This document shows, piece by piece, positions 37,378-58,236 of a stretch of 64,000 nucleotides of DNA; position 1 is the first letter of the stretch; each line of letters opens with the position of its first letter. A model generated the notes under the pieces. The model saw only the letters and a list, made by a program, of their open reading frames with translations. It made no database searches and was not told the DNA's origin. A program made the translations under genes and the position numbers. Source of the stretch: a virus; IMG/VR virus record IMGVR_UViG_3300009161_000023, positions 133,542-197,541 of that record. One strand, written 5' to 3'.

Positions 37378-37436
37378 TTATTATCTTTCTTTTTAAATAT
37401 AATATATATTTTTAATATATACTGTTATAAAAATAA

Positions 37437-39506
<2,070 letters not shown>

Positions 39507-39544
39507 TTTTAATAATTTATTTTATTAGAATTAAAACAATATAT

Positions 39545-39569
39545 AAGCTACATGTAAAACATGTAGCTT
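39545..39569 (+). terminator. Stem-loop after the collagen-like gene
   Basis: aagctacatgt-aaa-acatgtagctt, perfect 11-bp stem. Confidence 0.55.
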
Positions 39570-39635
39570 GTATATTTTAATTACATTGAATTTTACACAA
39601 GAAAGAAAGTAAATCAATGAAAATAACAAATAAAA

Positions 39636-40394: not shown

Positions 40395-40433
40395 ATACTA
40401 CGATATAAAAAATTCTCTTGAAAGGTATTTAAA

Positions 40434-41051: not shown

Positions 41052-41054
41052 TTT

Positions 41055-41834: not shown

Positions 41835-42795
41835 GAAAATATTAGTTTTAGGAGCAGGAGGCTTCATTGGATCTCATTTGGTAAAAAAACTAAAAATGAA
41901 AGACTGTTATATTACAGGTGTTGATATAAAATATCCTGAATATTCAAATACCTTAGCAGATAACTTTATAATCGGGGATTTAAAACAGCAACTTTTTTGC
42001 GATGAAATATTTAACAGTAAATTTGATGAAGTATACCAACTCGCAGCTGATATGGGAGGTGCTGGTTATATTTTTACTGGCGACAATGATGCTAATATTA
42101 TGACTAACTCAGCATTAATTAATTTAAATGTTTTAGAAAGGTGTGTTAAGACACAAGTTGGAAAAGTTTTCTACTCTTCTTCTGCGTGTATTTACCCTGC
42201 TTATAATCAATTAGATCCAAAAAATCCAAATTGCTCAGAATATTCAGCTTATCCAGCTTCTCCAGATAGTGAATATGGATGGGAAAAGCTTTTTAGCGAA
42301 AGACTTTATCTTTCTTATCATAAAAATTATAAATTAAATATTAGAATTGCTAGATTTCATAATATTTTTGGCCCTGAAGGAAGTTGGAATAACGGAAAAG
42401 AAAAAGCTCCAGCAGCATTGTGCAGAAAAGTAGCAGAATCAAATTCTGTTATTGATGTTTGGGGAGATGGAAAACAAACTCGTTCTTTTCTTTATATTGA
42501 TGAGTGTTTAGAAGGTATAGAAAAGCTAATCGAATCAAACTTTATTGGGCCTGTTAATATTGGATCAGATGAAATTATTTCAATAAATGAATTAACTAAT
42601 ATGATCATTGCAATATCAGGGAAAAAATTAACTATAAACAACATAAAAGGGCCAACTGGAGTAAGAGGAAGGAATTCTGATAATAAAATGTTATTTGATA
42701 ATATTGGATGGAAGCCAAGCTGTAAGTTAAAAGATGGAATAGAAAAAACATTTTATTGGATTAATGAGCAATTTAAAAAATTACTTTATATATAG
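41821..42795 (+). CDS. GDP-mannose 3,5-epimerase-like NAD-dependent epimerase
   Basis: GAGGFIG, QLAADMGGAGYI, YSSSACIYP, YGWEKLFSE, KEKAPAALCRK, GVRGRNSDN. Confidence 0.9.
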   Translation: MSFVKKILVLGAGGFIGSHLVKKLKMKDCYITGVDIKYPEYSNTLADNFIIGDLKQQLFCDEIFNSKFDEVYQLAADMGGAGYIFTGDNDANIMTNSALINLNVLERCVKTQVGKVFYSSSACIYPAYNQLDPKNPNCSEYSAYPASPDSEYGWEKLFSERLYLSYHKNYKLNIRIARFHNIFGPEGSWNNGKEKAPAALCRKVAESNSVIDVWGDGKQTRSFLYIDECLEGIEKLIESNFIGPVNIGSDEIISINELTNMIIAISGKKLTINNIKGPTGVRGRNSDNKMLFDNIGWKPSCKLKDGIEKTFYWINEQFKKLLYI

Positions 42796-42820
42796 ATTAT
42801 ATTAAGAAAAGGAACATGTT

Positions 42821-43498
42821 ATGAAAAGTTTTGAAATTTATTTAATTGAAGAAGATCTAATTAAAACTATTGATATTTCAAGAAAACAATTGTATTGTGA
42901 AAGTTTGTTAAAAGAAAATTTTCAAGTAAATGAATTTTTAAGTTTATTACCATCTATGCTTGGCTTACTTGGATCAAGCAAACCTAAAGATGTTGAAAGT
43001 GAAGTAAAAGAAAAAGATAAAAAATTATTTATTATAGAATTTTTAAAAAGTTCTGTTAAAAAATTAGGTTTGTTAGTTGTTATTGGTGCATTGCTCTACT
43101 TAGGTATAAAAACTGGGATAATAGCACAGTTGCTAAGCTGGGCTGGTACTATAATTAAAACTATAGTTATGTGGATAGTTTCTTTAGCTGGAGATAAAAT
43201 TAAAGCAATTCTAGAAAAAGCTTATGAAGCATTCAATGGTTTTGTAGTTGATACTGCATCACAAATTAATGATAAAACTGGAGAAGCTGGAGAATATCTA
43301 AAAGATCTATTCAAAAAAGGTACTGGAACTTTTGGCAATCCAGATATTGGTAATTCTTGGGATAATCCACAAGAAACAGATTTTCTAGGAAGAGGAAGAA
43401 CTATTTTAACTCCAAAAGAAGATAAACCAATAGATTGGAATGGAATAAATGATTTTTTTAAAGATAGAACATTAATTGATCCAAGTTTATTAAGATAA
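42821..43498 (+). CDS. Membrane protein with CTS-like leader
   Basis: MKSFEIYLIEE; hydrophobic helices LGLLVVIGALLYLG... Confidence 0.7.
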   Translation: MKSFEIYLIEEDLIKTIDISRKQLYCESLLKENFQVNEFLSLLPSMLGLLGSSKPKDVESEVKEKDKKLFIIEFLKSSVKKLGLLVVIGALLYLGIKTGIIAQLLSWAGTIIKTIVMWIVSLAGDKIKAILEKAYEAFNGFVVDTASQINDKTGEAGEYLKDLFKKGTGTFGNPDIGNSWDNPQETDFLGRGRTILTPKEDKPIDWNGINDFFKDRTLIDPSLLR

Positions 43499-43635
43499 TA
43501 CAAGAAAGATTTAAATTAGTGAAGATATTTAAAACATTAATGTTCTTTATAATCTCATTTTTTGTAATGTACTTTACTTTGAAATTTTTATTGGCAGATC
43601 TAATAAATAATTGCAATTGCTTGGAACACTAAACT

Positions 43636-45045
43636 ATGAACTTTAAAAATTGGATTATAAACGAGGAAATTTACCAAAATAATACAGCAACAATATTTCA
43701 CAGAACTCCAACTATTTCAGCAATTTTTTCACTTTTGACTACTAAATTCAATATTGGAAAAAGAATTAATTACGGTAGTGGTTTGTATACCACTACTACC
43801 ATTGATGGTCAATTCGTTGAAGACATGAAGGAATTTGGAGCTTTCGTAACCAAATGGAAAGTACAAGATCTTGATAAATATATTGTTTTAGGAAAACAAC
43901 ATGCCATTAAAATACATGGAGATCAATATATTATAAGTTCTCAATTAGAAAAGTTAAACGCTTTAGAAGAATTCAAAGAAAAAAATAAAGAAGAGTGGGA
44001 AATTAAACTAAAACAATGGGATAAATATCAAGAAGTCAACAGTCCACAGATAATAGATTTTTTAAATGACAATGAAAAATGGCTAGATAAAAGTAAATCT
44101 TTTAAAGGTTGTATTTATCGTGACAATAGATATGGATATTGTTTGTTAAAATTTAATCCTATCGAAGACGGAACAATAACATTTTTAGCATATGCAGAAG
44201 CTGAAGCTGACGATATACAAAAAATGGAAAAATTAAAAGATAAAAATAGTGAACATTGGATAAAGTCAACCGAAAAAGCAAGCATCAAAAGTATTTATAG
44301 AAGTCCACAAGATCAAAAAACTAAATATGGTATTGAAATTCCAGAACTAAAAATCACACCTACAGGTGGCGAAACTCTAACTGTTAAAGAATCACCTTTC
44401 GTTTATCACCTTTTGATGACACCCCTAAAAACGGGTGTAAAATGGGATTTCAATACCCAAAAAGCCATAGGTTCTAAGGATTCAGACAAATCAGTCATAG
44501 ATCCAGTCTTTATATTTTCTTATGAAAATAAAACTTGGAACTTAAAATTTAAAAAAGAAAATTTTAATAGTGGTGGTTACCTTGGAAATTCAATGTATGA
44601 AATCCCAAATATTGACGGAACACCTGTAAAAGAAATTAACAAAATAAAAAATAATAGTAAACTTTGTTTTAACGGTAAAAAAGTAAGCAATGTTTGTTTT
44701 CAATTTAATTTTGAAGAAAAAAATAAAATTGTTAAAGGTGAATCAGATAAATTGAAACTAATATCATCAGAAAATAACAAAAAATATATTGTTGACAAAA
44801 GAGATGAGTTTGGACAAAGAAATTTAACTGATCTACTTCCAATGTCAGTAAAGTTTTACGCCAGTAGTCAATTTAGATTAGAAAAAATTCAAACAAATTG
44901 GATCATAACACAAATTGTTGGAGCAAAAAACACAACAAACTTAAATGGAATTCCATTGGAACCATCGGAGATAAAACCTTTAAAAGATGGAGATATAATT
45001 TCTATCGGAAAAACACAGCAAGGAAAATTGCAAGTTAAACTTTAA
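43636..45045 (+). CDS. PARP/ART-like N-terminal domain plus C-terminal FHA domain, CTS-like leader
   Basis: MNFKNWIINEE; IFHRT...KFNIGKRINYGSGLYTT; C-terminal FGQR...NTTNLNG..L...LKDGDIISIG. Confidence 0.6.
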   Translation: MNFKNWIINEEIYQNNTATIFHRTPTISAIFSLLTTKFNIGKRINYGSGLYTTTTIDGQFVEDMKEFGAFVTKWKVQDLDKYIVLGKQHAIKIHGDQYIISSQLEKLNALEEFKEKNKEEWEIKLKQWDKYQEVNSPQIIDFLNDNEKWLDKSKSFKGCIYRDNRYGYCLLKFNPIEDGTITFLAYAEAEADDIQKMEKLKDKNSEHWIKSTEKASIKSIYRSPQDQKTKYGIEIPELKITPTGGETLTVKESPFVYHLLMTPLKTGVKWDFNTQKAIGSKDSDKSVIDPVFIFSYENKTWNLKFKKENFNSGGYLGNSMYEIPNIDGTPVKEINKIKNNSKLCFNGKKVSNVCFQFNFEEKNKIVKGESDKLKLISSENNKKYIVDKRDEFGQRNLTDLLPMSVKFYASSQFRLEKIQTNWIITQIVGAKNTTNLNGIPLEPSEIKPLKDGDIISIGKTQQGKLQVKL

Positions 45046-45063
45046 AAAACAAAGAATCGAATT

Positions 45064-45876
45064 ATGAACTTTAAAAACTGGCTACTAAATGAATCTAAAG
45101 CTATAACTCTACCACCAGAAGTGTTGAGCTTTATCGATCAAATAACACCAGAAATTACAAAGATAATGATCGATAGTAAAAAAAATCCTGACGGGCTGTT
45201 GTACCAATGTTCCGAAATTAAAAAATTAAATAAAAAATGGCATATTAAAGTTCCGATTAAATCAAAAAGTTATGATAGATTTGATTACGAAATAACTGGT
45301 GTTAAAGATAGAAAGACTGAAAAATATTTTCCTATAACTGTAGTTCTTGATTGCAATTATAAAACAAATTTTGGTCAATTTTCCGACAACGAAGTTAAAG
45401 TAAATACATTCTGGTGGGGAAAACTACAAGATGGATCTACTAAACTTGAAATATCTATAGAATCTGTAAAAGGTTTGCTTATACATGAGTTCATTCATGC
45501 TGTTGATATAAAAAATCACGATGAAAAAGTTATAAAAGCAATATCGAAAAAACATTCCGATGGCGATTACAGCGACCCTAATGAAATAGATGCATATAGT
45601 GGAACTATTACACAAAGAATTATAAGTTACGCAAATGAAAGTAACGATCACCAAAAAACACATAAAGATTTAGAAAAAATACTAGATTTCATTAAAAGCA
45701 CCGAAAAATATAGAAATACAAACATAGTTTTATACCCTCTAATTCCTAAAGATGTTGTAAAAATATATAAATATATGGATATAGGAGATGAAACAATAAA
45801 AAGAAGAATGCTTTCTAGAATTTATGACGCAGTAATGCAAGCAAAAACTATCATACAACAAAAACAAAGAATCTAA
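45064..45876 (+). CDS. HExxH metallopeptidase-like protein with CTS-like leader
   Basis: MNFKNWLLNE; LLIHEFIHAVD...PNEIDAY. Confidence 0.75.
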   Translation: MNFKNWLLNESKAITLPPEVLSFIDQITPEITKIMIDSKKNPDGLLYQCSEIKKLNKKWHIKVPIKSKSYDRFDYEITGVKDRKTEKYFPITVVLDCNYKTNFGQFSDNEVKVNTFWWGKLQDGSTKLEISIESVKGLLIHEFIHAVDIKNHDEKVIKAISKKHSDGDYSDPNEIDAYSGTITQRIISYANESNDHQKTHKDLEKILDFIKSTEKYRNTNIVLYPLIPKDVVKIYKYMDIGDETIKRRMLSRIYDAVMQAKTIIQQKQRI

Positions 45877-45927
45877 TAAATAATTAATTATGGATTTTAA
45901 AAAGCGTAACTATCGCATAAATAAACT

Positions 45928-46488
45928 ATGAAAACATTTAAACAATTCTTAAAAGAAAAACCTTATAACGAACAATTAGATATGCCACCACCACAAAAAA
46001 TTATATTAGGTGTACCTGCCATGAGGCTTGATATAACTGATCTTAATAAGTTTAAAGGCATAGACGATATTATAGCAAATTCAAAAGATGCAGAAGATAT
46101 ATTAATATCTTTAAAATTTCGAACAAGTAAAGATAAATTATCCGAAATAAACCCAGAAACTTTAGCAAATGCGTTAGTCAAAACAAAAGCTGTTCCTGAT
46201 AAGGTTAAAGAAATACTTGAATACTTTGGCGAACACCATAATGTTATGTCAAAGTATGAAATTAAAAATATGTTGAATATTACATTTGGAAATTTAGATA
46301 TTCCACAAGATGTTAAAAGTTATTTAACTACTAAACTAGAAGACTTTAGACAAAAACATCAACAGACAAGAGATATATTTTATAAGAAAAATTATCCTGA
46401 TTTGTTGAAAGGAACAAATATTGATACAAGTTATTATGACTCTGAAACAGGCAAAGGTAAATTTGGTGGGCCTGATTATCTAAGATAA
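45928..46488 (+). CDS. Hypothetical protein with CTS-like leader (MKTFKQFLKE..NEQLDMPPP)
   Basis: CATAAATA-aact-ATG. Confidence 0.75.
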   Translation: MKTFKQFLKEKPYNEQLDMPPPQKIILGVPAMRLDITDLNKFKGIDDIIANSKDAEDILISLKFRTSKDKLSEINPETLANALVKTKAVPDKVKEILEYFGEHHNVMSKYEIKNMLNITFGNLDIPQDVKSYLTTKLEDFRQKHQQTRDIFYKKNYPDLLKGTNIDTSYYDSETGKGKFGGPDYLR

Positions 46489-46542
46489 AAATTAAATTGT
46501 AATAAGCATAAATAATTCATACTATTATTGCATAAATAAACT

Positions 46543-47076
46543 ATGAAAACATTTATTGAATATATTAACGAAATAGAAAATAATAAAAGCGTAACTAATT
46601 CGTCATATGATTACAATCATGAATTTAAAAAATGGACTGTATTCCTCGAAAAAAAAGATGCTTGCTATTATAAAGTCAAAAGAAGATACCATGTGTGGCC
46701 TTCGGCCTACGGTTCTGGGGCCCTGGTTAAATGTAGAAAAAAAGGTGCAAAAAATTGGGGCAATTCTAAAAAAAACGAAACTACTGAATTAAATGAAGAT
46801 ATATTTAAAGCAGAAAAAGAAAAAGGATTACGAGGCTGGTTTGATAGAAATAAAGGAAAAGGATGGATAGACTGCAAAGCTAGCAAAAAAGGAAAACTCG
46901 TTTCTTGTGGCCGTAAAAAAGCTGGCAAAGGTGCTAAAAGAAAATATCCAGCCTGTAGACCAACTTTATCAGCATGTAATAAAACTGGGGTTAAAAGGAA
47001 AATAAGCAAAAAAGCTATTTCTTGGAAAAAGAAAATACTTGAAATGATAACATCTAAGATAGAAACAATAGAATAA
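46543..47076 (+). CDS. Basic Cys/Trp-containing two-module protein with CTS-like leader
   Basis: MKTFIEYINE; KDACYYKVKRRYHVWPSAYGSGALVKCRK; GLRGWF...WIDC...CGR...YPACRP. Confidence 0.75.
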   Translation: MKTFIEYINEIENNKSVTNSSYDYNHEFKKWTVFLEKKDACYYKVKRRYHVWPSAYGSGALVKCRKKGAKNWGNSKKNETTELNEDIFKAEKEKGLRGWFDRNKGKGWIDCKASKKGKLVSCGRKKAGKGAKRKYPACRPTLSACNKTGVKRKISKKAISWKKKILEMITSKIETIE

Positions 47077-47114
47077 AACAGAACTAATTCATCCTACTAT
47101 TGCATAAATACATT
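47075..47114 (+). promoter_or_regulatory. Copy of the about 41-bp intergenic element ending in a late-promoter-like CATAAATA box
   Basis: aaaacagaactaattcatcctactattgcataaatacatt-ATG. Confidence 0.7.
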
Positions 47115-49355
47115 ATGAAATTTAAAAATTGGCTACTAATAAACGAAGGCATGATAAAAGTATCAGCAAAAATTTATACACAAGTAATAACTGACTACTT
47201 TGAAAAATTAAAAGAATATAAAGCTTTTGGAGAAATTAGAGCTTCAACAAAAAGTTATCCACTTATAAATGAAAAAGAAAATCTTTTCAACGATACATCA
47301 TTTTCTTTTTTAATTGGTTATTTTAAAAAAGTAACATTAAATGTAAAATATAGAAAATTTGAAAAAGCCGAACAAAAGTCTTACCCAGCATATTACGAAG
47401 CTCAAGACTTTCCCAGTATGAAAATTTTTAAAGGAATGGAATTTAAAGGAACAATTGTTTTGGATTTAAAGATACTTGATGTAAAACATAAATATGATTA
47501 TATTACATTAATTCAACACGAAATAACCCATTTTATTCAAGACTTAGAAAAAATTCACGCTTACTTGAAAAGCTTAGAAAGACAATTAATTTACTTATAC
47601 AAAAAACAAAAAGAAGAAAAAGTGAGCTATAGATACGGAAACGAAATAGAAAGAATTCACAAAGCTTTGAATTTTGGGAATTTTCCAGCAGAAGATCCAT
47701 TAGAAGAAAAAGATATGCCTCTTGCTGGAATTTCTCCATTACAAATCACAAAAAACACCATGAAAGATAAAAAAATTAATTTTAATGGAGTTTTCAAAGT
47801 AAAAGATGATTTAGAAACTCAAAAATTAAAAACAATAGATCACGAAAAAAGACCAATTGAATTTCAAACTAATCTTATTTCAGTTGTTGGAGATTTTCAA
47901 AGAGATTATTTTGAAAAAATTCTAGATGGAAAATTAAAAAAAGAAAATGGATACGAAATTCCAGATGATTTATATTCTTTTGATTCATATGGTTCTAATC
48001 TAGGTTGGAAAAATAAAATAATGAATTACAATAAAATACTTGAATTTTTTAACAATAGAAATAATAAAAAATTATTCTTGAAATCAATCTTAAGCATTTT
48101 TGAAAAGACTGATTTTAAAATTTTCCATATGGATGTATGGAAAAGATATCATATTTTAACTTCGATTAAAGCACACACTGATAATACTGATACTAATGAG
48201 TTGTACAAATGGTACTTAAGTAATATTTATAAAGAATTTGTAAATAAAGACATTGATATGGATTACTTGAAATTGTTACATAAACAAGACAGATTATCTG
48301 AAGTCCCACTCGAACAAAAAAAAGACCTTTTAATAGATACACTTGAAAGTCTAAAAGGAAAAAAAGAACAAAAATATTATGCTCGTGATATAAAGTTTTT
48401 TAATAATCACGATCCTGATTTGCGTAATTTTAAAATTGATAACAAAGCTGGTGATCAATATTGGCATGCATGGAACATCTTAAAAGCATTTTATGGTAAT
48501 CAAAAAAAATACGATAAAGAAATAAAAAATGGTAGAATAATGGATTATGAAAAACTTAACGAGATATTCAAAATTATAAAAAGAGATAAAGTAGCTTTTA
48601 GAAAAGAATATGCTGGACAAAAAATTGTTTTGAATGAAATATATGAAAATTATGAAAAATTTATCAATGCTTTCTTAGATCGAATTGTTAAGTCTTATGA
48701 AATACATTACCAAAATCATAAAAATGATTATTACGAAAATGATAAAATGGAAGACATTTTACCTAAACCACCAACAAAAAACGATTTCATAGAAGACTTT
48801 AATATAGAAATTAAAAAAGAAGATGTTAAACCACCAGTAAAAGTAGATAAAATCGTAAATACTAAAAGTAAAGATCTTTTGGAAACTATGGATGTTTATA
48901 CATTTATTTCACTTGAATATAAAGGTGAAAAAGATGAAGAAGATGATAATAAATGGAATATAATCCATGATATAGATGATCGTAAAGAAAAAATTTCTAA
49001 TGTTTCTTATAGTTATGCAAACAAGGTTGGAAGCTTATTGGAAACTTTTCTTGATCACAAAGATTCTGACCATAATATAGATAGATATAAATTAAAGCAA
49101 AAACCTGTCAAAAGAAACATTGGTATATATGAAATCTATCACCTTTTTCAATTTTTGGAACGAATACTTAATATAGACGCAAATCAAAAAGAACCATATG
49201 ATGTAGTAATTGCAAATAAAAAAATAATTGCTAGATTCTTAGCAGAAGATATCGCATGGTCATATAAAAAACATTATGAAGAAAATAATATAGATGAAAA
49301 ACCACCTACAGCAGAAAAAATATTTTTCGATAATTATGTTACATCTAGTTCCTAA
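47115..49355 (+). CDS. HExxH metallopeptidase-like protein (long paralog of 50975) with CTS-like leader
   Basis: True start MKFKNWLLINE at 47115; IQHEITHFIQ...DHEKRPIEFQTNLISV. Confidence 0.75.
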   Translation: MKFKNWLLINEGMIKVSAKIYTQVITDYFEKLKEYKAFGEIRASTKSYPLINEKENLFNDTSFSFLIGYFKKVTLNVKYRKFEKAEQKSYPAYYEAQDFPSMKIFKGMEFKGTIVLDLKILDVKHKYDYITLIQHEITHFIQDLEKIHAYLKSLERQLIYLYKKQKEEKVSYRYGNEIERIHKALNFGNFPAEDPLEEKDMPLAGISPLQITKNTMKDKKINFNGVFKVKDDLETQKLKTIDHEKRPIEFQTNLISVVGDFQRDYFEKILDGKLKKENGYEIPDDLYSFDSYGSNLGWKNKIMNYNKILEFFNNRNNKKLFLKSILSIFEKTDFKIFHMDVWKRYHILTSIKAHTDNTDTNELYKWYLSNIYKEFVNKDIDMDYLKLLHKQDRLSEVPLEQKKDLLIDTLESLKGKKEQKYYARDIKFFNNHDPDLRNFKIDNKAGDQYWHAWNILKAFYGNQKKYDKEIKNGRIMDYEKLNEIFKIIKRDKVAFRKEYAGQKIVLNEIYENYEKFINAFLDRIVKSYEIHYQNHKNDYYENDKMEDILPKPPTKNDFIEDFNIEIKKEDVKPPVKVDKIVNTKSKDLLETMDVYTFISLEYKGEKDEEDDNKWNIIHDIDDRKEKISNVSYSYANKVGSLLETFLDHKDSDHNIDRYKLKQKPVKRNIGIYEIYHLFQFLERILNIDANQKEPYDVVIANKKIIARFLAEDIAWSYKKHYEENNIDEKPPTAEKIFFDNYVTSSS

Positions 49356-49395
49356 AAAACTAAACTAATTCGTACTACCATTGCATAAATACACT
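49355..49395 (+). promoter_or_regulatory. Copy of the 41-bp intergenic element/late-promoter-like box
   Basis: aaaaactaaactaattcgtactaccattgcataaatacact-ATG. Confidence 0.7.
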
Positions 49396-50934
49396 ATGAA
49401 TTTTAAAAATTGGTTAATATCTGAAGAACAACTTTTTAATGAGGACTTCAAAACTCAAAGAGAAAAATTCATCCAACAAGGCATAGGAAAAGACATCGTT
49501 GACGGTTACCTCAAGGATTTTAAAACCATCAAAGAAAAAAAATATAAACAAATCAATGATCCAATACACGGATTAGAACATATCAAAGACAGAATCAATA
49601 TAGACGCTTATAAAACATTCCATGAACTAGCATCGCTAGTAGATTATGTCAAAGGACAAACTGATGTTTCTGGTAAAACCAATTATAAAAATATCGAAGT
49701 AGATGCAACACCAATTCATGAAGATAACGACTTGATAATTTATTACGCAGATACTCCTCAAGCATGCGTTACTTACAAAGGTGATGTTCCATATTCTTGG
49801 TGCATTGCCCGACCCGATGCAAGTAATTTATTTTATTTTTATAGATTAGGTAAACTAGAACCATCATTCTATTTTGTAAAAAACAAGGAAAGAACTAACA
49901 AAGAACTTGAAACATTTAAAGGAAAAACATTCACTGATAAATATCACTTCTTTGTAATTCAAGTAATAAAAAATGCTAACCCTGAAGATGAAGATAATCA
50001 ACAATATATTGTAACTTCCGCAGAAAATGATGGTGATGAAAAAATGTCATGGACTGATATATTAAAATTAGAACCAAAATTAATTAATAAACAAAACATA
50101 TTTGCTAGTAAACTTTTAGCACCTAAAGAAAAAGAATTATACAAAAGATTTAGCAATGGTATTTCTGATAAAGAATTTGAAAATTTACCTTTTGATGAAA
50201 AAGATATGTATTTGAGTGTTTATGTTAGAGAAAACCGACCACTTACCGACAACCAATTTAAATTTTTACCATCTGATTTAAAAAATAAGTATATTGGATT
50301 TGGAACAGGATTAAGTTATGAACAATTTAAAATGATTGATTCTGATTCTAAATTATATAAAAGATATGAAGATGTTACAAGAATTAAAATAAAAAAAACA
50401 ATTGGAACTGATAAATTTAATCTTATGCCAACTGAAATTATTGTTATGAAAAAAATAGCAAGTGAAATTGATTTTGATAAACTTTCTGGATTTAGCCTTG
50501 CCCCGTTATTAGGCAGAGAAAGTAAAAACCAAAAAGACGAAATGGCAGAATTGATTATAAAATATAAATCAGAACTTTCTAATAAGGAAATTGATGATTT
50601 GATTCGTTATGCAAAATACAAAGACAAAATAACAGAACTATTAAAAGATAAAATAAAAGATAAAATAAACAACTTTTCTAATAATGATGTTGCTAATTTG
50701 CTTCTTAGAGCAGACTACAACTACAGATTTTATATAGTAAAACTATTGGGAACAGCTAATATAAGTAAGCTTGATGGTCTTAATTTATATAGTATATTTT
50801 TAAATTCTAATAAAGATGATGATGATCTAATTCAAATTGCAATTATCATAGACAGATATCACACAAATAAAAACCTTGTAAAAAGATTTACAAGCAAATT
50901 CGAACATTTTCTCGACAAAAAACCTCCTGAATAA
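49396..50934 (+). CDS. Hypothetical protein with CTS-like leader and C-terminal helical repeats (paralog of 56047)
   Basis: MNFKNWLISEEQLFNE; YYADTPQACVTYKG..PYSWC.AR.DASN shared with 56047. Confidence 0.8.
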   Translation: MNFKNWLISEEQLFNEDFKTQREKFIQQGIGKDIVDGYLKDFKTIKEKKYKQINDPIHGLEHIKDRINIDAYKTFHELASLVDYVKGQTDVSGKTNYKNIEVDATPIHEDNDLIIYYADTPQACVTYKGDVPYSWCIARPDASNLFYFYRLGKLEPSFYFVKNKERTNKELETFKGKTFTDKYHFFVIQVIKNANPEDEDNQQYIVTSAENDGDEKMSWTDILKLEPKLINKQNIFASKLLAPKEKELYKRFSNGISDKEFENLPFDEKDMYLSVYVRENRPLTDNQFKFLPSDLKNKYIGFGTGLSYEQFKMIDSDSKLYKRYEDVTRIKIKKTIGTDKFNLMPTEIIVMKKIASEIDFDKLSGFSLAPLLGRESKNQKDEMAELIIKYKSELSNKEIDDLIRYAKYKDKITELLKDKIKDKINNFSNNDVANLLLRADYNYRFYIVKLLGTANISKLDGLNLYSIFLNSNKDDDDLIQIAIIIDRYHTNKNLVKRFTSKFEHFLDKKPPE

Positions 50935-50974
50935 AAAACGGAACTAATTCGTACTACCATTGCATAAATACACT
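50934..50974 (+). promoter_or_regulatory. Copy of the 41-bp intergenic element/late-promoter-like box
   Basis: aaaaacggaactaattcgtactaccattgcataaatacact-ATG. Confidence 0.7.
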
Positions 50975-51961
50975 ATGAATTTTAAAAATTGGCTAATAAA
51001 AGAAGGTGCAATTCAAGTACCATTTAAAGTTTTTGAACCAATTGTTACTGATTATTTCAATTACTTGAAAAATAATATTGAAAAACCACAAAGAAAAACC
51101 AAAACATATAGCTTGGATTTCTCAAATACAAAATATGAATTTTTAAAACATCTTAACCCAAAATTAAAAGTAAATTATAAAGGCTTTAAAGATAATACCG
51201 TTGGACATTATTTTGGAGAAAAAGCAGATGTTGCAATACACGATGACCAAACATATGAAGTAACAGGAGTTATAGAACTAAAATATGATTTGTTTAAAAA
51301 TTTTTATTATTCTGCAATTGTTAATCCTGCAATTTATGGACTTGTAGAACATGAATTTACTCATTTCTTACAACATTTACTTGATATTAATGAATACCTT
51401 AAAAACAATGAAAGCATACCAGATGACATGGATCTTATTCCAATTAAAGCACATGGTGGCAGTGTGCCAAAAAGATTAACAAAATATCTGATGAAAAAAC
51501 AAGATGTTGATTTTTATGGTTATAATTTAAAAACAAACAAACCGATAGATCACGAAAAAAGACCAATAGAATTTCAAACTAATCTTATTTCTGTTTTAGA
51601 CAAAATACAATCAAGCTTTGTAAATGCATTTTTAAGTGGAAATTTAAACCCAAGTTATTTTTCTTATCCTTATGACATTGTAAAAACTATCAAAACTAAA
51701 GAAGATTTTGAAAAAAATAAAAATTTAATAATTGGATTTTTAAACAACCCAATAGAAAAAAAGAAATTCATTCTTTCATCTAAAAAAGGACAGTTTAGAA
51801 TTGATAGCGATGACTTAACAAATGTTAAAAAATATAACACAGAATTGTATAATTGGTACTTAAATGAAATTTATAAAAACTTTGTAACAAAAGATATCGA
51901 AGAAAATAAACTAAATTACTTAGCGGATGTGTATTTCTTTTCCAAAAAATCTTATAAATAA
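50975..51961 (+). CDS. HExxH metallopeptidase-like protein (short paralog of 47115) with CTS-like leader
   Basis: MNFKNWLIKE; VEHEFTHFLQ...DHEKRPIEFQTNLISV. Confidence 0.75.
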   Translation: MNFKNWLIKEGAIQVPFKVFEPIVTDYFNYLKNNIEKPQRKTKTYSLDFSNTKYEFLKHLNPKLKVNYKGFKDNTVGHYFGEKADVAIHDDQTYEVTGVIELKYDLFKNFYYSAIVNPAIYGLVEHEFTHFLQHLLDINEYLKNNESIPDDMDLIPIKAHGGSVPKRLTKYLMKKQDVDFYGYNLKTNKPIDHEKRPIEFQTNLISVLDKIQSSFVNAFLSGNLNPSYFSYPYDIVKTIKTKEDFEKNKNLIIGFLNNPIEKKKFILSSKKGQFRIDSDDLTNVKKYNTELYNWYLNEIYKNFVTKDIEENKLNYLADVYFFSKKSYK

Positions 51962-52027
51962 AAAACGGAACTAATTCGCACTACTATTGCATAAATACAA
52001 AGAAAGCGGAACTAATTCGCACTACTA
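51961..52027 (+). promoter_or_regulatory. One full plus one partial copy of the 41-bp intergenic element
   Basis: aaaaacggaactaattcgcactactattgcataaataca, then cggaactaattcgcactacta at 52007. Confidence 0.7.
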
Positions 52028-52044
52028 CCAAAAAATAGGAAATT

Positions 52045-52758
52045 ATGAATTTTAAAATATGGTTGGAAAATTATAAAGATATTAATAATAAAGAAGAATA
52101 TGAAAAAATAAACAAACTCAACATGACAGCTAGTTTACCATTTGAACCTAAAAGTATTCCACAAGCGATAAGCGATATTGGCAAACTAACTAGAGGATTT
52201 CATTTAAATACCATCGTTGGTCGTATGATGACTCCATGGATTAATTCACTAAACAGAGCACCTATAGATTATGAATTATTAGAAACCGACCCAGAAAAAG
52301 CAACAAAATGGTCAGTTAGTAGCACCGATAGAAAAGCAAATAATAATTATAAAGCTGCATATGACTTGTTTAAACAGGAAATAGCCAACGCAGTAGATGC
52401 TTTACCAGTTAAACTTGGAATTAATATTATGACAGGCAAACCAGAAGATGTTCTTTTGAAAACTAAAGAATTTTTATCAAATTATACTCCCGAAGAAAAA
52501 GACCTTGTAAAATCACTCGACAACGCTTGGAATTTATATACAAAAGTATTTGGAAACGATAAAAAAAGTAATTTTTCTCAAATTCAAAACTTTGCAAACT
52601 TCTTTCAACTCGTCAAAGAAGAATTTATGAAAATTGGCGAACTACTCAATAACATGCAAGATGACGATGGATTAAATGTAATACAAAATGATTTTTTAAA
52701 AGCTCTTAATAAAGAACAAAGAAAATATGAAAAAATGATGGGCGTTTCATTTGAATAA
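52045..52758 (+). CDS. Hypothetical helical protein with CTS-like leader
   Basis: MNFKIWLEN; SD tagga. Confidence 0.75.
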   Translation: MNFKIWLENYKDINNKEEYEKINKLNMTASLPFEPKSIPQAISDIGKLTRGFHLNTIVGRMMTPWINSLNRAPIDYELLETDPEKATKWSVSSTDRKANNNYKAAYDLFKQEIANAVDALPVKLGINIMTGKPEDVLLKTKEFLSNYTPEEKDLVKSLDNAWNLYTKVFGNDKKSNFSQIQNFANFFQLVKEEFMKIGELLNNMQDDDGLNVIQNDFLKALNKEQRKYEKMMGVSFE

Positions 52759-52767
52759 TAGATTTTA

Positions 52768-52808
52768 AAAAACGGAACTAATTCGCCCTACCATTGCATA
52801 AATACACT
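52768..52808 (+). promoter_or_regulatory. Copy of the 41-bp intergenic element/late-promoter-like box
   Basis: aaaaacggaactaattcgccctaccattgcataaatacact-ATG (39/41 identical to the 50934 copy). Confidence 0.7.
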
Positions 52809-52958
52809 ATGGATACTTTTGAAAATACATCTCCTCCAGAAGAACAAATTCAAAAAGTTTTAGCCAAATGCTGGAACTGCGAAAATTATGTTTATTGCAC
52901 TGGAACAATTCTTAATTATTGCGATATGTGCCTAAATGAAATGACAAAGACACAATGA
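52809..52958 (+). CDS. 49-aa Cys-rich (CxxC...CxxC) mini-protein not in ORF track
   Basis: MDTFENTSPPEEQIQKVLAKCWNCENYVYCTGTILNYCDMCLNEMTKTQ*; behind the promoter element, ATGA-coupled to 52955. Confidence 0.65.
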   Translation: MDTFENTSPPEEQIQKVLAKCWNCENYVYCTGTILNYCDMCLNEMTKTQ

Positions 52959-53422
52959 ACTTTAAAAATTGGCTATTAAACGAAGCAAGACAAGGTTTTC
53001 TACGATACCTTAAAGAAAAATTACCGCTTGTTCCTGAATATGTCTTGTTTGATTTATTTTATAAAAATATAAAAAATTCTAAACCTGAAGAAATAGAAGA
53101 ACTTATACAAATTTATAAAGATTTTAAATGGGAATTTAAAACAAATTTTCACATAAGCTACGAAATATTTGATGATACAACTATTCAAAAACTTAAAATT
53201 AGAAAAGGTGGAACAGTAAATCCATACGGTGTTCCTAACGATAAACAAAGACATGATAAACAAAAAGAACTAATTACAAAAGCAATTCCTAAAGAACCAA
53301 TCATATTAATTAAAAATGGTAATAAATATGAATTGCTGGAAGGATGGCATAGAACCATTCAATTATTTGAAAAATATCCAAAGGGATTTGTTTACCCACA
53401 AGTTTATATAGGTATACCATGA
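52955..53422 (+). CDS. ParB/Sulfiredoxin-like domain protein with CTS-like leader
   Basis: MNFKNWLLNE; EPIILIKNGNKYELLEGWHRT. Confidence 0.6.
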   Translation: MNFKNWLLNEARQGFLRYLKEKLPLVPEYVLFDLFYKNIKNSKPEEIEELIQIYKDFKWEFKTNFHISYEIFDDTTIQKLKIRKGGTVNPYGVPNDKQRHDKQKELITKAIPKEPIILIKNGNKYELLEGWHRTIQLFEKYPKGFVYPQVYIGIP

Positions 53423-53961
53423 ACTTTAAAAACTGGCTACTACTCTCTGAAGAACAAATTTTAAATGAAAGATTTAGAGAAATAGCTGCTGGTAATGAAA
53501 ATTTCAAATTTTTATTTGATCAGGAACATAAATTTTTAGCCTATGATCGTAGAACAAACTTAAATGTAGGTTGGCTCATAGTAGGTTATAAAAATGAAGA
53601 TGGATCAAGATCTGTTCACAATGTAGCTGTAGATCCAGTCTTTAGAAGACAAGGAATAGCCACATCTCTATATAAAGCAGCAGAACAAGAATTCGGCAAA
53701 CTTACACCCAGCACCGCCCAATCAGATAACGCATTTGACTTCTGGAAAACTTATCGACCAGAAGCTGTTAAAAACAAAACAGACCTAAGACCATTTAAAG
53801 ATCAGTTAATAGGCAAGAAATTCGACCATCCAAGATTAGGACCAATGGAAATAATAGAAGTAAATATACATACAGCTACAGGACTTATTAAAAATAGAGA
53901 ACGGCATACCGAAATTTTTCTAAATAAAAATGACTTAATAAAGTTTAATCTATTACCATAA
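53419..53961 (+). CDS. GNAT acetyltransferase with CTS-like leader
   Basis: MNFKNWLLLSEEQILNE; VHNVAVDPVFRRQGIATSLY...QSDNAFDFW. Confidence 0.85.
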   Translation: MNFKNWLLLSEEQILNERFREIAAGNENFKFLFDQEHKFLAYDRRTNLNVGWLIVGYKNEDGSRSVHNVAVDPVFRRQGIATSLYKAAEQEFGKLTPSTAQSDNAFDFWKTYRPEAVKNKTDLRPFKDQLIGKKFDHPRLGPMEIIEVNIHTATGLIKNRERHTEIFLNKNDLIKFNLLP

Positions 53962-53968
53962 ATACACT

Positions 53969-54919
53969 ATGAACTTTAAAAACTGGCTATTACTAAATGA
54001 GGTTTCTGATTTTGAAAAAAATCAGATGGGAACAAAAAAACTAACTTATAATTATGTTTCCCAAAAAGAATGGCCAAAATTGCGTGAATACTTGGTTCAA
54101 CAATCTTTGACACGAAATCCTAATTTAGACACAGAGTTAACAGCTTATACACCAGGCGAAACCTTGGAACTGCTTGATCATCCTAAAATTAAAGCATGGT
54201 TTAAAAAAATGAAAAATTTTAAAATACCAGATAAATATGGTCTTGTTATACTAGTAGCTTGTGCAGCTTCTAAACCTTGGGGTCAAGGTTGTAAAGGTGA
54301 ATTTTATCCATCTTACAACAAAATTAGAACAGAAGAAGAACTTAAAACAAGAAAAAATTCTAAACCTAGTTACTTCGTTACTATATCAGAACCTCTTGGA
54401 GTTGTTCCTCAAGATTTCTGGGATAACTTCCCACAATATGATAATCCAGGTCTATTTAAGGACAACACACAACAAAGTATGACAACTAAAGATTGGATAC
54501 AAAAATCACCTTTTAACCAAAAAAGAGAAATGCCTTTTGACGATGAAGCATTTAATAAATGTATTGAAATATTAGGTAATGTTATTGGTACCTTTATCAA
54601 AAATAACCCAAATCATGAATATATATCTATTGTTGAACAAGCAGATAAAACAAAGATTTCAACACATAGCAAAATGTTAGATATTGCACAGGCTTATGCT
54701 AAAAAATCAATATTAAGAAATGAAAAAAAACCAAGTAAAGGTAGAGATAAATATGACGGTGTTGCTCATGTTAAAAAAATAATTCAACAAAGTCCAACAA
54801 AGTATACTAAAGAAGATGAAGAATATCTAAGAAAAAATTTAACAGGCAATGTATCATTAGATAAAGATGTCATAAAAAATTTAAAAGAAATACAAAAAGA
54901 TAGAAATTTTAAACTATGA
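53969..54919 (+). CDS. ArcS/TgtA2-related DUF5591-like domain protein with CTS-like leader
   Basis: VILVACAASKPW...FVTISEPLGVVPQDFW..FPQYD. Confidence 0.55.
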   Translation: MNFKNWLLLNEVSDFEKNQMGTKKLTYNYVSQKEWPKLREYLVQQSLTRNPNLDTELTAYTPGETLELLDHPKIKAWFKKMKNFKIPDKYGLVILVACAASKPWGQGCKGEFYPSYNKIRTEEELKTRKNSKPSYFVTISEPLGVVPQDFWDNFPQYDNPGLFKDNTQQSMTTKDWIQKSPFNQKREMPFDDEAFNKCIEILGNVIGTFIKNNPNHEYISIVEQADKTKISTHSKMLDIAQAYAKKSILRNEKKPSKGRDKYDGVAHVKKIIQQSPTKYTKEDEEYLRKNLTGNVSLDKDVIKNLKEIQKDRNFKL

Positions 54920-55503
54920 ACTTTAAAAACTGGCTACTATTAACTGAAAACATAATCGTAAAAAAAGATGATATTATGTTTGTGAATTTTGTGGAAGATC
55001 AACAATTAAGACTTGAATTAGAAAATCAAGATTATGATGTTTATGTCCGTGGAAGTTTTTCAGACGGGCCATTACTTGAAATAGACAAAGTAGGTTCAAT
55101 TAGATTGTTAATGGCTGGTCCGATTAGCAGACCAACATATTATACTGTACATTCAATTAATGGAAAATCAAAAGGTGCAGGAACAATATTGTACTTTGCT
55201 GCACTTGAATTCGTGGTTAAATATGGAATTAGATCTGCAAATGGATTGCTTGCATCAGATACAACAATATCATCAGATGCAGTTAGAGCAAGAAAAAGAC
55301 TTCAAGATAATTATGGCGAATATATCTCTATACATGAACATCCAGATATAAAAAATGCCAAAACTCACAACTGGACTGATGAAAGATTAAAAGCTACTCC
55401 AGAGGAAGCGTCAATGTGGAAATTAAAAACTCTTGCACATCCATTTAATTTTAATTTTATATCTGCAAATCCACAAATAAAAACACCAAAATTCAATCCC
55501 TAA
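54916..55503 (+). CDS. GNAT-like protein with CTS-like leader
   Basis: SKGAGTILYFAALEF...LASDTTISSDA. Confidence 0.55.
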   Translation: MNFKNWLLLTENIIVKKDDIMFVNFVEDQQLRLELENQDYDVYVRGSFSDGPLLEIDKVGSIRLLMAGPISRPTYYTVHSINGKSKGAGTILYFAALEFVVKYGIRSANGLLASDTTISSDAVRARKRLQDNYGEYISIHEHPDIKNAKTHNWTDERLKATPEEASMWKLKTLAHPFNFNFISANPQIKTPKFNP

Positions 55504-55518
55504 TCAATAAATACCTTT

Positions 55519-56043
55519 ATGAACTTTAAACTATGGCTGTTATCTGAAATGCCCGTTATTTCTCTGCAAGGTAAAACCGTACTCGCAGATGATAAACCTC
55601 TCAAAGAAGTCGATGTTGATAATGTCAAAAACAATATCGTCAGTTTCCAACAAGCAACTAAGAGTATTTTTCATGAAGCAGGAGCAATTTGGGTCTATTT
55701 TCTTGACTCAGAAGAATCTGCTAAAAAAATGATAGCACAACAGATACCTTTCCTAACGGTTCCCACAATTGCTGATGGCGATGATCCAATAACTGAGGTG
55801 TGGAAAAAACGATATGCCAAAAAAGGAACCGAACACATTTTGGGACTATTAGAAGGCAATGCCAATGAAAAAGACATTTATATAAACATGATGACTGTTA
55901 GACCTAAATATAAAAGAAACACCATCAATACAAAAATGATACAATTTTTGCAATCAGAATTTCCAAATGCAAAAATATCTTTTAGTTCACCTACACCAGA
56001 AGGCAAAAAATTTATAAATAAATACACAAAAATTGATAAATAA
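55519..56043 (+). CDS. GNAT-like protein with CTS-like leader
   Basis: MNFKLWLLSE; IYINMMTVRPKYKRNTINTKMI...FSSPTPEGKKF. Confidence 0.6.
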   Translation: MNFKLWLLSEMPVISLQGKTVLADDKPLKEVDVDNVKNNIVSFQQATKSIFHEAGAIWVYFLDSEESAKKMIAQQIPFLTVPTIADGDDPITEVWKKRYAKKGTEHILGLLEGNANEKDIYINMMTVRPKYKRNTINTKMIQFLQSEFPNAKISFSSPTPEGKKFINKYTKIDK

Positions 56044-56046
56044 ATC

Positions 56047-57843
56047 ATGAACTTTAAAAACTGGCTACTACTCTCTGAAGAACAACTTTTTAATGAAGAT
56101 TTTAAAACTCAAAGAGAAAAATTCATCCAACAAGGCATAGAACCAGATGCCGTTGACTATTACCTCAATACCTTTAAAACTATTAAAGATAAAAAATACA
56201 AACAAATTAATGACCCAATACAAGGTCTTGAACATATCAAAGATAAAACCAATATAGATGCTTTTAAAATATGGAAAGAACTAGAAGACTTCGTTGATTA
56301 TGTTAAAAGCCAAGTAGATGTTTCTGGTAAAACTAGTTACAAGAATATCAAAGTAGACGCAAAACCAATCTATGAAGATAACGACCTGATAATTTATTAC
56401 GCAGATACTCCTCAAGCATGTGTTACTTACAAAGGCAATGTTCCATATTCTTGGTGTGTTGCCAGAACCGATGCAAGTAATATGTTTTACCACTATAGAT
56501 TTGGAACACATAAACCATCATTCTATTTTGTAAAAAATAAGGAACGAACCAATACAGAACTTGAAACATTTAAAGGAGGAACATTTACTGATAAATATCA
56601 CTTCTTCGTAATCCAAGTAATAAAATATGCTAAACCTGAAAATAAAGATGATCAACAATACATTGTAACTTCTGCACAAAATATTGGTGATCAACAAATG
56701 TCATGGAATGATATATTAAAACTAGAACCTAAATTAACTAATAAAGAAAATATATTTATCAGCAAGCCTCTTGGAATTAAAGAAGAAGAACTATACGAAA
56801 AATTCAAAAATGGTATTTCTGATAAAGAATTTGAAAACTTACCTTTTGATGAAAAAGATATGTACTTGAATATTTATGTAAGACAAGACCGACCACTAAC
56901 CGACAACCAATTTAAATTTTTACCAACTGATTTAAAAAATAAGTATATTGGCTTTGGAGTTGGTTTGTCTGATGAACAAGTTGAAATGATTGATTCTAAA
57001 TTATACAAAAGATATGAAGATGTCACAAAAACTAAAATAGAAAAAACTATTGGAACTGAAGAATTTAAACTTACACCAAGCGAAGTTAATATATTATTAA
57101 AATATATAAATGAATTTGATTTCAACAAACTTTCTTATGATAATGTTGAGTATTTGCTTAAATACGCAACTGATGACAACATGGCAAAATTAATTATACA
57201 AAAGAAACAAAACCTTTATACTTTTGATGTTTTTAATTTGCTTGATTATGCAACCAATAAAGAAGAAATAGCAGAACTATTACAAAAAGATAACATTAGT
57301 GAACTTAGACACAATGATATTGTTACATTGCTTAATAATGCAACCGATAAAGACAAAATGGCAGAACTACTTATAAAATATAAAACAAATTTTCGTGATA
57401 ATATTTATTATTTGCTTTTTTTTGCAACCGATGATAACAAAGACAAAATAGCAGAACTAATTATCGAAAAAGAAAAAGAACTTTCTAGCTTGCATCTTCT
57501 TCCTGATATTGGTATCGAAGCGTTACTTTATTATTCAAATGACACAGAAAAAATAGCAAACTTGCTAGGAACAGATAACATAAATAGAATTGAAAATAGA
57601 AATATTTTCAAGTTGATTACAAAATTAGAAGGCAGACCTTTAAAACTAGAAATAATTGCTAAAATATTAGGAGAAACAAATATAAGTAAACTTACTTATG
57701 ATTCTATTAAGTTAATGCTTAGCAAATCACATCCTAAAAAAGAAAATACCGCAAAAATACTAAATCAATATTATGCAAATAAAACACCACAAATAAAAAG
57801 ATTAATTAATAAACATTTAAAAACAAAAACCCTTCCTGAATAA
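56047..57843 (+). CDS. Hypothetical protein with CTS-like leader and C-terminal helical repeats (paralog of 49396)
   Basis: MNFKNWLLLSEEQLFNEDFKTQREKFIQQGI; repeats of the type DK(M/I)AEL(L/I)I. Confidence 0.8.
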   Translation: MNFKNWLLLSEEQLFNEDFKTQREKFIQQGIEPDAVDYYLNTFKTIKDKKYKQINDPIQGLEHIKDKTNIDAFKIWKELEDFVDYVKSQVDVSGKTSYKNIKVDAKPIYEDNDLIIYYADTPQACVTYKGNVPYSWCVARTDASNMFYHYRFGTHKPSFYFVKNKERTNTELETFKGGTFTDKYHFFVIQVIKYAKPENKDDQQYIVTSAQNIGDQQMSWNDILKLEPKLTNKENIFISKPLGIKEEELYEKFKNGISDKEFENLPFDEKDMYLNIYVRQDRPLTDNQFKFLPTDLKNKYIGFGVGLSDEQVEMIDSKLYKRYEDVTKTKIEKTIGTEEFKLTPSEVNILLKYINEFDFNKLSYDNVEYLLKYATDDNMAKLIIQKKQNLYTFDVFNLLDYATNKEEIAELLQKDNISELRHNDIVTLLNNATDKDKMAELLIKYKTNFRDNIYYLLFFATDDNKDKIAELIIEKEKELSSLHLLPDIGIEALLYYSNDTEKIANLLGTDNINRIENRNIFKLITKLEGRPLKLEIIAKILGETNISKLTYDSIKLMLSKSHPKKENTAKILNQYYANKTPQIKRLINKHLKTKTLPE

Positions 57844-57926: not shown

Positions 57927-58138
57927 ATCCAATTTTGCAACAACACAGTATACGCCAAAAATATACCTCGTCAAACAAACAAAGGGAGTGATAATGGTGT
58001 AGAGCATATAAGGAGTACCCAACTCTCTAATGTTTTTTATTTTTAATTTATTAATTTTTAATTTTGCAACAAAGTTATTTTTAAAATATTAATATATTAA
58101 TACCATCTTTGTATTTGATAGTACCAAGTCTAAGGTTG

Positions 58139-58236
58139 CCTAGCCTAGCCTAGCCTGACCTGACCTGACCTGACCTGACCTGACCTGACCTGACCTAGCC
58201 TAGCCTAGTCTGGCCTGACCTAGTCTGGCCTGACCT
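58139..58236. repeat. Pentamer tandem repeat (CCTAG/CCTGA)n
   Basis: cctagcctagcctagcctgacctgacctgacc...; non-triplet unit, no ORF. Confidence 0.95.

Follow-up and report, generated by a model that had tools for sequence, protein, structure and literature searches.

A promoter, start codon and leader head as the probable recombination linker of a cassette array in an uncultured giant phage

We analyzed a 64,000-nt stretch of viral DNA, hereafter the window, which corresponds to positions 133,542–197,541 of the IMG/VR record IMGVR_UViG_3300009161_000023; all coordinates refer to the whole stretch. The GC content is 23–37% over most of its length. The window contains an array of 15 co-oriented genes, A1–A15, named below by position. 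All but one of them (14 of 15, the exception being 52809) open with a short N-terminal leader peptide, either MNFKNWL..E or MKTF..F..E. The protein bodies behind these leaders are unrelated and include FHA, GNAT, DUF5591-like, ESCO-type acetyltransferase and HExxH-motif proteins; many have no match, and most array proteins were left unnamed by PHROGs and Pfam. A preliminary description of this region had proposed that promoter and leader DNA is copied between the genes, and that the repeated junction serves as a cassette platform that works without an integrase and gives any captured gene late expression and a packaging tag.

43636–57843, plus strand: cassette array A1–A15, 15 co-oriented genes
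43636, 45064, 45928, 46543, 47115, 49396, 50975, 52045, plus strand: starts of A1–A8
52809, 52955, 53419, 53969, 54916, 55519, 56047, plus strand: starts of A9–A15
53418–53457, plus strand: 40-nt identical leader, left copy (GNAT gene 53419)
56046–56085, plus strand: 40-nt identical leader, right copy (gene 56047)

The window holds at least 20 leader genes, all between 26.3 and 57.8 kb and on the plus strand only. Their leaders are of the types MNFKNWL..E, MKFKxW..E and MKTFxxFxxE, with MKTF... forms at 26944, 27187, 45928 and 46543. The 18-mer ATGAACTTTAAAAAYTGG is found exactly at seven starts (43636, 45064, 52955, 53419, 53969, 54916 and 56047), compared to a chance expectation of 0.02, and with one mismatch at three more (47115, 49396 and 50975). 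The preliminary count of seven genes thus holds for exact copies and underestimates the family, which has at least ten members with one mismatch or none. The reported common start of the GNAT gene and 56047 was confirmed at 40 nt of identity, and the two proteins align over residues 1–20 only. The leaders also have their own codon usage: Leu codon 7 is CTA in 8 of 11 leaders but in 10–14% of cases in the gene bodies, a preference that had been noted before, and Asn codon 2 is AAC in 8 of 11 leaders compared to 23–24% in the bodies. The leader genes have an A-rich 5′ coding region. In 40 of 63 distinct leader open reading frames (ORFs), the motif [LIMF]-x-E ends at residue 9–11.

Upstream of many of these starts is a conserved noncoding junction. 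A recurring 41-bp element had been described here, and we recovered four copies with 0–2 mismatches (49355, 50934, 51961 and 52768) in a search that allowed up to three mismatches and expected none in 100 shuffles. At 47075 there is a more diverged copy (78% over 74 nt), and a partial copy lies at 52002–52044. A second class of junction precedes gene 30486.

47075–47114, plus strand: junction copy 1, diverged; stop codon, AGAACTAATTCA box, ATTGCATAAATA box, 4 nt and ATG of 47115
49355–49395, plus strand: junction copy 2, precedes gene 49396
50934–50974, plus strand: junction copy 3, precedes gene 50975; perfect pattern match
51961–52044, plus strand: junction copy 4 and partial tandem copy (52002–52044), precedes gene 52045
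52768–52808, plus strand: junction copy 5, precedes the 49-aa Cys-rich gene 52809
30445–30485, plus strand: second junction class; ATTGCATAAATA box and ~25-nt 5′ untranslated region (UTR) with AAGGA, precedes gene 30486 (MKSFKEFLKQ)

The consensus of 28 distinct copies from the window and its relatives begins with TAA, the stop codon of the previous gene, continues with AAAACGGAACTAATT(C/T)GC and about 5 variable bases, and ends with CTATTGCATA(A/T)ATA, 4 nt and the ATG. We refer to the entire unit as the head: previous stop codon, GGAACTAATTCG box, ATTGCATAAATA box, 4 nt, ATG and 10–11 leader codons that encode MNFKNWL[LI]x(x)E or MKTFxxFxxE. Exact tracts between heads measure 21–51 nt, and the longest (49363–49413 = 50942–50992) covers part of the junction and the first 18 coding nt. 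In the partial copy at 52002–52044, an AGGA ribosome site takes the place of the promoter box, and the pair at 51961–52044 would form the 5′ UTR of gene 52045; the same arrangement is present in three relatives (L040, L027 and L062). The genes that have no intergenic junction (52955, 53419 and 54916) overlap the previous stop codon as ATGA.

The spacing of box and start codon is specific to gene starts. ATAAATA-N4-ATG occurs 12 times in the window where 1.2 are expected, each time on the plus strand at a gene start, and nine of the 12 sites belong to leader or array genes. The genes with this arrangement have no Shine-Dalgarno sequence, whereas most genes without the box have a Shine-Dalgarno match. 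The second junction class, which is also found in G001, L037, L062 and L069, has a 5′ UTR after the box, and this argues that the box is a promoter. If so, mRNAs of the N4-ATG class would have little or no 5′ UTR, and we consider that they are probably either leaderless or translationally coupled. The ATAAATA box resembles a T4-type late promoter; it is not sigma-70-like, and a scan of the window for sigma-70 promoters and terminators gave counts no higher than in shuffled sequence. In the junction copies, GGAACT stands 17–18 nt upstream of ATAAAT (for example at 50940–50969), which is the layout of a −35/−10 promoter. T4 late promoters have no −35 element, and GGAAC is like the −35 element of extracytoplasmic-function (ECF) sigma factors. 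The layout could hint at a sigma factor or activator encoded by the phage.

Folding of six junction copies as RNA gave z scores of −0.25 to +0.31 and no stable structure, and no terminator-like site was seen at any junction. A weak CGGAA/TTCG pairing is present, but its variants are not compensatory. The unstructured folds rule out a terminator, an attC-like site and a stem-loop of the PeSL type (a module of T4-type phages discussed below) at the junctions.

We compared the array with its relatives. Of 77 loci that the junction pattern hit in a metagenome scan, 15 also matched the window by blastn; the others look like chance matches in AT-rich DNA. Two of the 15 are pieces of G001, and 12, mostly from lake or sediment samples, entered the comparison, giving a set of 13 related contigs (G001 plus 12 metagenome contigs, denoted L). 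G001, the closest relative, is a 120-kb IMG/VR contig (also Ga0214919_10000131) that comes from the same sample as L081; it is collinear with window positions 4–22 kb at 73–75% nucleotide identity, and its genes include one for a gp6-like baseplate wedge (phrog_219, 1e-28). Because this 120-kb contig is rated 24% complete, we estimate the phage genome at ~0.5 Mb, and the data imply that the source is an uncultured, AT-rich giant myovirus of freshwater with a genome of roughly 0.5 Mb. The array had no megablast match among 50,697 phage records, and tblastn against phage records found a single distant record, LR756511.1. No connection of this lineage to the aquatic "moraphages" emerged from PMC12619734.

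Gene order in the array differs from contig to contig. To the right of 46543 lies 47115 in the window, a fusion of a carrier module (described below) with 52955 in G001, a 243-aa gene in L037 and L076, which are different samples, and a 299-aa MNFKHW gene in L062 and L075. The right neighbor of 52045 is 52809 in the window, L040 and L070, and one of two different carrier fusions in L027 and L068. Gene 52809 is itself followed by 52955 in the window and by a paralog of 43636 in L040 and L070; up to +30 of the 52955 leader, these two contigs match the window at 97.6–98.2% identity. Similarly, 49396 is followed by 50975 in the window and by a 482-aa gene in L081, which matches the window at 96% identity as far as +23 of the 50975 leader. 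Left neighbors vary as well: 56047 is preceded by 55519 (window), 52955 (G001), the GNAT gene (L037) or a carrier fusion (L027), and the GNAT gene by 52955 (window), 55519 (L037) or a 316-aa gene (L068). The G001 homolog of 50975 lies elsewhere, ahead of the 30956 homolog.

Compared to G001, the window has three extra blocks, 37399–46529, 47115–52768 and 53419–56046. The block 47115–52768 is flanked by junction copies, the four-gene block 53419–56046 is flanked by the 40-nt leader copies, and in both cases G001 has a single copy at the site. The remaining block contains a collagen-repeat gene (37461–39506, GC ~42%), four genes of the sugar-modification or glycosyltransferase type (39636–42795), and A1–A3.

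37399–46529, plus strand: 9.1-kb block, absent between the same flanks in G001, L037, L054 and L075

With contig ends excluded, 20 of the 22 homology ends in the array lie at positions −54 to +55 relative to a leader ATG, and the other two border a gap inside gene 49396 in L081. Among the relatives, whole bodies are inserted, deleted, replaced, reordered or fused, and homology changes within the head. Content and order thus differ among the 13 contigs and breakpoints lie at the junction or leader, which is the reverse of the fixed order, with breakpoints unrelated to the repeat, that the preliminary description had named as speaking against cassette shuffling. Homology breaks off in the junction, after codon 6, after codons 10–11 or after codon 17, and this variability fits homology-driven rather than site-specific exchange.

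Exchange at the DNA level has left further footprints. The 52955 body carries the leader MNFKNWLLNE in the window and INFKNWLLLSE in G001, the latter with DNA of the 53419/56047 type. The 56047 leader equals that of the unrelated GNAT gene, yet it differs at about seven positions and by an indel from its own paralog 49396. Three variants of codons 14–16 (ATTTTAAAT, CTTTTTAAT and CTTTTAAAT) are each shared by two or three of the families 49396, 53419 and 56047. At 52809, the junction and the first 18 coding nt (MDTFEN) are common to an unrelated family in G001, L027, L068, L076 and L032, followed by complete divergence. Two remnants of heads also persist in the window.

46582–46635, plus strand: fossil junction and old leader inside gene 46543, translated (…NKSVTNSSYDYNHEFKKW…)
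35309–35328, plus strand: decayed promoter-box scar ATTACACAAATACATTATT at the site of an extra 277-aa MNFKHW cassette in G001, L054 and L037

The G001 copy of the fossil matches the junction at 25 of 26 nt, and the distant 46543 homologs in L004 and L015 begin MKF[NS]EWLELREEKDAC exactly where the window reads HEFKKWTVFLEKKDAC. We conclude from the fossil that a newer promoter–leader head was added upstream of an older one. The preliminary argument for copying had been identity at synonymous sites. Copying is borne out by the incongruence of leaders and bodies, the fossil and the scar, while synonymous identity by itself could reflect selection on starts that have no ribosome-binding site. 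The shared cassettes are 81–99% identical to G001 at the protein level, compared to 50–92%, mostly 55–77%, in the collinear left flank, and this high cassette identity suggests recent lateral exchange. For gene 56047, leader and body are 94% and 92% identical between the window and G001, so close that a comparison of synonymous divergence (dS) is uninformative.

We consider it probable that the array is a hyperplastic cassette region in which homologous recombination acts at a head composed of promoter, start codon and leader, and that the leader is akin to the capsid-targeting sequence (CTS) of T4. In the proposed mechanism, general homologous recombination would use heads of ~60–100 bp as portable linkers: within a genome, through unequal crossover or gene conversion between heads, and between co-infecting relatives, through a double crossover in two heads. 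With heads as linkers, each incoming body would bring its promoter, start codon and leader along. T4-type recombination requires less than 50 bp of homology (Arbiol 2010, PMC2839356). The earlier proposal of an integrase-free platform fits, as the crossovers vary within ~100 bp, the junctions have no attC-like structure, and no integrase domain was found in the array proteins.

The functional half of the proposal is based on T4. In the T4 record, ipII and ipIII share an identical ribosome site and 32 identical nt encoding MKTYQEFIAE. Residues 4 and 7 of the T4 CTS are targeting residues, and residues 8 and 10 direct cleavage (PMC9026906; see also PMC3012670 and PMC12373910). The window leaders MKTFKQFLKE and MKTFIEYINE agree with MKTYQEFIAE at M1, K2, T3, the aromatic residues 4 and 7, L/I 8 and E10, and thus have both the aromatic or hydrophobic positions 4 and 7 and the [LI]-x-E at 8–10 of a CTS leader; the MNFKNWLLxE class has a CTS-like motif offset by one residue. 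Likewise, unrelated mature proteins share the leader only, as seen in the GNAT and 56047 proteins and in Pfam domains that differ or are absent. On the grounds of the ipII/ipIII identity, the published roles of the residues and the 40 leaders with [LIMF]-x-E, we infer by analogy that the leader is a capsid-targeting tag, along with packaging, cleavage, late timing and leaderless initiation. The leader would dock the protein to the scaffold core, a gp21-type prohead protease would cut it after [LI]-x-E, and the mature protein would stay in the capsid and be ejected with the DNA.

The distant relative LR756511.1, a 595-kb uncultured phage, links such leaders to a T4-type capsid module. Its 56047 homolog is 50% identical and has the leader MEFREWFRSAE, and two more leader genes adjoin it (MLTWTEFLEA and (GTG)DFKEWYFINE). 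These three genes lie 1–4 kb from a run of four capsid-assembly genes: a T4 portal (PF07230, 1e-74), a gp21 Peptidase_S77 (PF03420, 7e-28), a gp23 capsid protein (PF07068, 5e-87) and a coiled-coil scaffold-like gene.

The leader also occurs inside fusion proteins of three relatives. A carrier module of ~115–125 aa (M..F.NATSWLHPNGTFHP…SSYDFSESNNH, which contains …NATSWLHPNGT…SESNNH), conserved in G001, L027 and L068, has no stop codon and reads in frame into an [M/I]NFKNWL leader and a different cargo in each contig. The internal ATG of the G001 fusion is ATC. In the window, the carrier slot is taken by the 49-aa gene 52809.

L008:14518–15321 (= G001 74518–75321): carrier fusion in G001, cargo a 52955 homolog
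L027 979–1494: carrier fusion in L027, cargo a 56047-type protein
L068 340–1290 in flipped coordinates, reverse strand: carrier fusion in L068, cargo a novel ~190-aa body

The sequence of the carrier fusion is suggestive of a polyprotein whose cargo can be exchanged and whose internal leader would serve as a targeting or cleavage site. To our knowledge, such a polyprotein mode of loading capsid cargo is undescribed for T4. A broader idea, which we put forward tentatively and hold to be somewhat doubtful, is that the head is a universal adaptor of giant phages. It would serve as a recombination linker within a genome and between species (flanking proteins are ~50–90% identical, shared cassettes 81–99%), so building arsenals of injected proteins, and also as the internal linker or cleavage site of carrier polyproteins.

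Several points weigh against the reading of the array as head-mediated exchange of capsid-tagged cassettes. All comparison sequences are short-read metagenome assemblies, which are prone to mis-joins at repeats. A leader stands at every gene boundary of the array, such that breakpoints at leaders and breakpoints at gene boundaries are inseparable by position. Selection on translation initiation, rather than copying, could have caused the codon bias of the leaders, and the identity gap between cassettes and flank could stem in part from fast evolution of the glycan and tail genes in the left flank. The T4-type capsid module is documented in the distant relative LR756511.1 only; gp21, gp23 and portal were not found in the fragments G001 and G004–G006, which are 10–49% complete, too partial for these negatives to be informative. 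None of the relatives gave a match to T4 gp55 in a single-sequence search, which is uninformative as gp55 is small and divergent.

These points bear most on the function of the leader. Shuffling may be real while the leader is another N-terminal signal, for localization, regulated proteolysis or some other assembly, or acts at the nucleotide level as a translation-initiation element; we regard this as the most serious alternative, although an unlikely one. In its favor are leader genes that are A-rich at their 5′ end and have no Shine-Dalgarno sequence, the preference for rare AAC and CTA codons at fixed leader positions, which is also seen in more distant contigs, and T4-type capsid genes that were seen only in a distant relative. 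But the peptide motif is kept where DNA and promoter differ, as in MEFREWFRSAE and (GTG)DFKEWYFINE, which have normal ribosome sites and lie beside gp21 and gp23 in LR756511.1, and it mirrors the T4 CTS at residues 4, 7, 8 and 10. Furthermore, the leader is internal in the carrier fusions, where it cannot act in initiation.

A dedicated site-specific system acting at the GGAACTAATTCG box, either integron-like or based on repair triggered by a homing endonuclease, is improbable. The box is highly conserved in the 28 distinct junction copies across contigs, and a free-standing homing-endonuclease gene with HNH_3 and NUMOD4 domains (27405–28064) interrupts a set of leader genes upstream of the array.

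26284–35277, plus strand: upstream leader-gene set (genes 26284, 26944, 27187, 28076, 29056, 30486, 30956 and 33973)

This set is also mosaic relative to G001. At the site of the endonuclease gene G001 has no copy, but it carries a 33%-identical one on the other strand, directly after its 56047 homolog (G001 77175–77687). Yet homology breaks at many positions rather than one site, and the ATGA-overlap cassettes, which do not have the GGAACTAATTCG box, are rearranged as well. The junctions form no attC-like or other stable structure (z ~0), Pfam and PHROGs found no integrase domain in the array proteins, and the box lies 17–18 nt upstream of ATAAAT, as expected of a −35-like promoter element. 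Endonuclease-triggered repair could add to local gene conversion.

Still less credible is that the true array is fixed and the variable order reflects assembler mis-joins at 40–60-bp repeats. The repeats do reach 51 nt of exact identity, and the relatives are all short-read assemblies. But the variant joins add genes that are absent from the window (299, 243, 277, 316 and 482 aa) and are hence not re-joins of window sequence, and the same variant joins recur in independent samples (L037/L076; L040/L070; L027/L032/L065; G001/L054/L075). Orthologous segments differ by 2–15% and so belong to distinct strains, and the fossil, the scar and the in-frame fusions are not assembly products. A static array in which purifying selection maintains an ancient N-terminus, with no DNA copying, would explain the conserved leader peptide in distant contigs, but we give it almost no credence, as order differs among relatives, the bodies are of different families or unrelated, the 56047 leader is identical to that of the GNAT gene while differing from its own paralog 49396, and the noncoding junction is copied along with the leader.

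Exchange of tagged cassettes at the head has precedents, and the principle is already known from T4-type phages (Arbiol 2010, PMC2839356, citing Repoila 1994). The internal-protein (IP) loci of T-even phages are hypervariable, and according to the account of Repoila 1994 (EMBO J 13:4181) in PMC2839356, their conserved flanks are thought to mediate exchanges. The IP-locus pattern fits in every testable feature. As in these loci, unrelated proteins share a leader of ~10 residues with aromatic residues at 4 and 7 and [LI]-x-E at 8–10, and as in ipII and ipIII, the leader and the upstream expression signals are identical as DNA between different genes. There are also differences. The window has its leader genes, at least 20, within 32 kb, compared to 3–4 in T4, and the consensus MNFKNWLLxE occurs beside MKTFxxFxxE. 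The head has neither a ribosome-binding site nor a stem-loop, and because its promoter box is 4 nt away from the ATG, promoter, start codon and tag all fall within the homology that recombines. Unlike the IP loci, the relatives have carrier fusions with an internal leader, and the lineage is that of an uncultured AT-rich freshwater phage of ~0.5 Mb, for which packaging and cleavage are predicted from sequence.

The second precedent is PeSL, a conserved regulatory module of ~100 bp that flanks ORFans in hyperplastic regions of T4-type phages (PMC2839356, PMC4122927). Indels and replacements between close relatives are bounded by this module, homologous recombination without a dedicated recombinase has been proposed, and the system, for which mini-circles have been shown, was compared to integrons without an integrase (PMC2839356, PMC4122927). 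The array matches it in being a hyperplastic region where the module marks the ends of the indels and replacements that distinguish close relatives. PeSL consists of a sigma-70-type early promoter and a G/C-rich stem-loop terminator, and it ends before the ATG (PMC2839356, PMC4122927). In the present junctions, a conserved ATTGCATAAATA box with an upstream GGAAC box, present in 28 distinct copies and enriched at gene starts, may act as a promoter, and no stem-loop or terminator was found. Their box is of the T4 late type (ATAAATA), and homology runs 30–50 nt into the coding region, and therefore the exchanged unit also carries a protein tag. With integrons, the array shares promoter-supplied runs of unrelated, co-oriented, exchangeable cassettes. 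Unlike in integrons, each cassette has its own promoter, crossovers are variable, and there is no structured attC-like site; neither a tyrosine-recombinase integrase nor attC was found among the array proteins and junctions of this partial genome.

The array thus extends the principle of the T-even IP loci and PeSL to uncultured phages of ~0.5 Mb and to a module that spans the coding start. Giant phages have hundreds of genes without known function, and the head would mark those that are probably loaded into the capsid and delivered before gene expression, making them the likeliest host-takeover and anti-defense proteins. This gene set turns over quickly by homologous recombination, apparently also between rather distant phages of the same lakes. 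The combination of ATAAATA-N4-ATG and MxFKxWLxxE provides a search key for candidate injected effectors in metagenomes, and for engineering the head suggests a natural "plug" for cargo in such phages.

In the upstream leader set, the gene at 28076–29059 encodes a DnaJ (J-domain) protein with the leader MRFKQWFNE, and the G001 contig carries no homolog of it. This protein could be an injected co-chaperone, provided that the leader is a packaging tag. The leader of gene 30956 is without an ATG (ATA ATT AAA TTT… = IIKFKEWLLLIE), where G001 reads ATGAACTTTAAACAATGG. The gene's sole in-frame start in the window is a TTG at 30893, overlapping the end of gene 30486, and the L037 version starts 5 codons upstream (MQRTIIKFKNW). 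These start positions indicate that the leader need not sit at the extreme N-terminus.

Three other observations concern the window at large. The HExxH-motif paralogs 47115 and 50975 share a 57-nt patch that is 93% identical (47829–47885 and 51539–51595; IDHEKRPIEFQTNLISV), which may be the result of local gene conversion. The stretch 1–22459, with a giant tail-region protein and a glycan island, is less conserved relative to G001 than 27163–57845, and an RCC1-repeat gene in the latter (35418–36593) is 99% identical to G001; these values suggest that the two halves of the window differ in history. A short way past the array, at 58129–58196, there are tandem CCTAG/CCTGA 5-mers in overlapping copies at 10-nt spacing.

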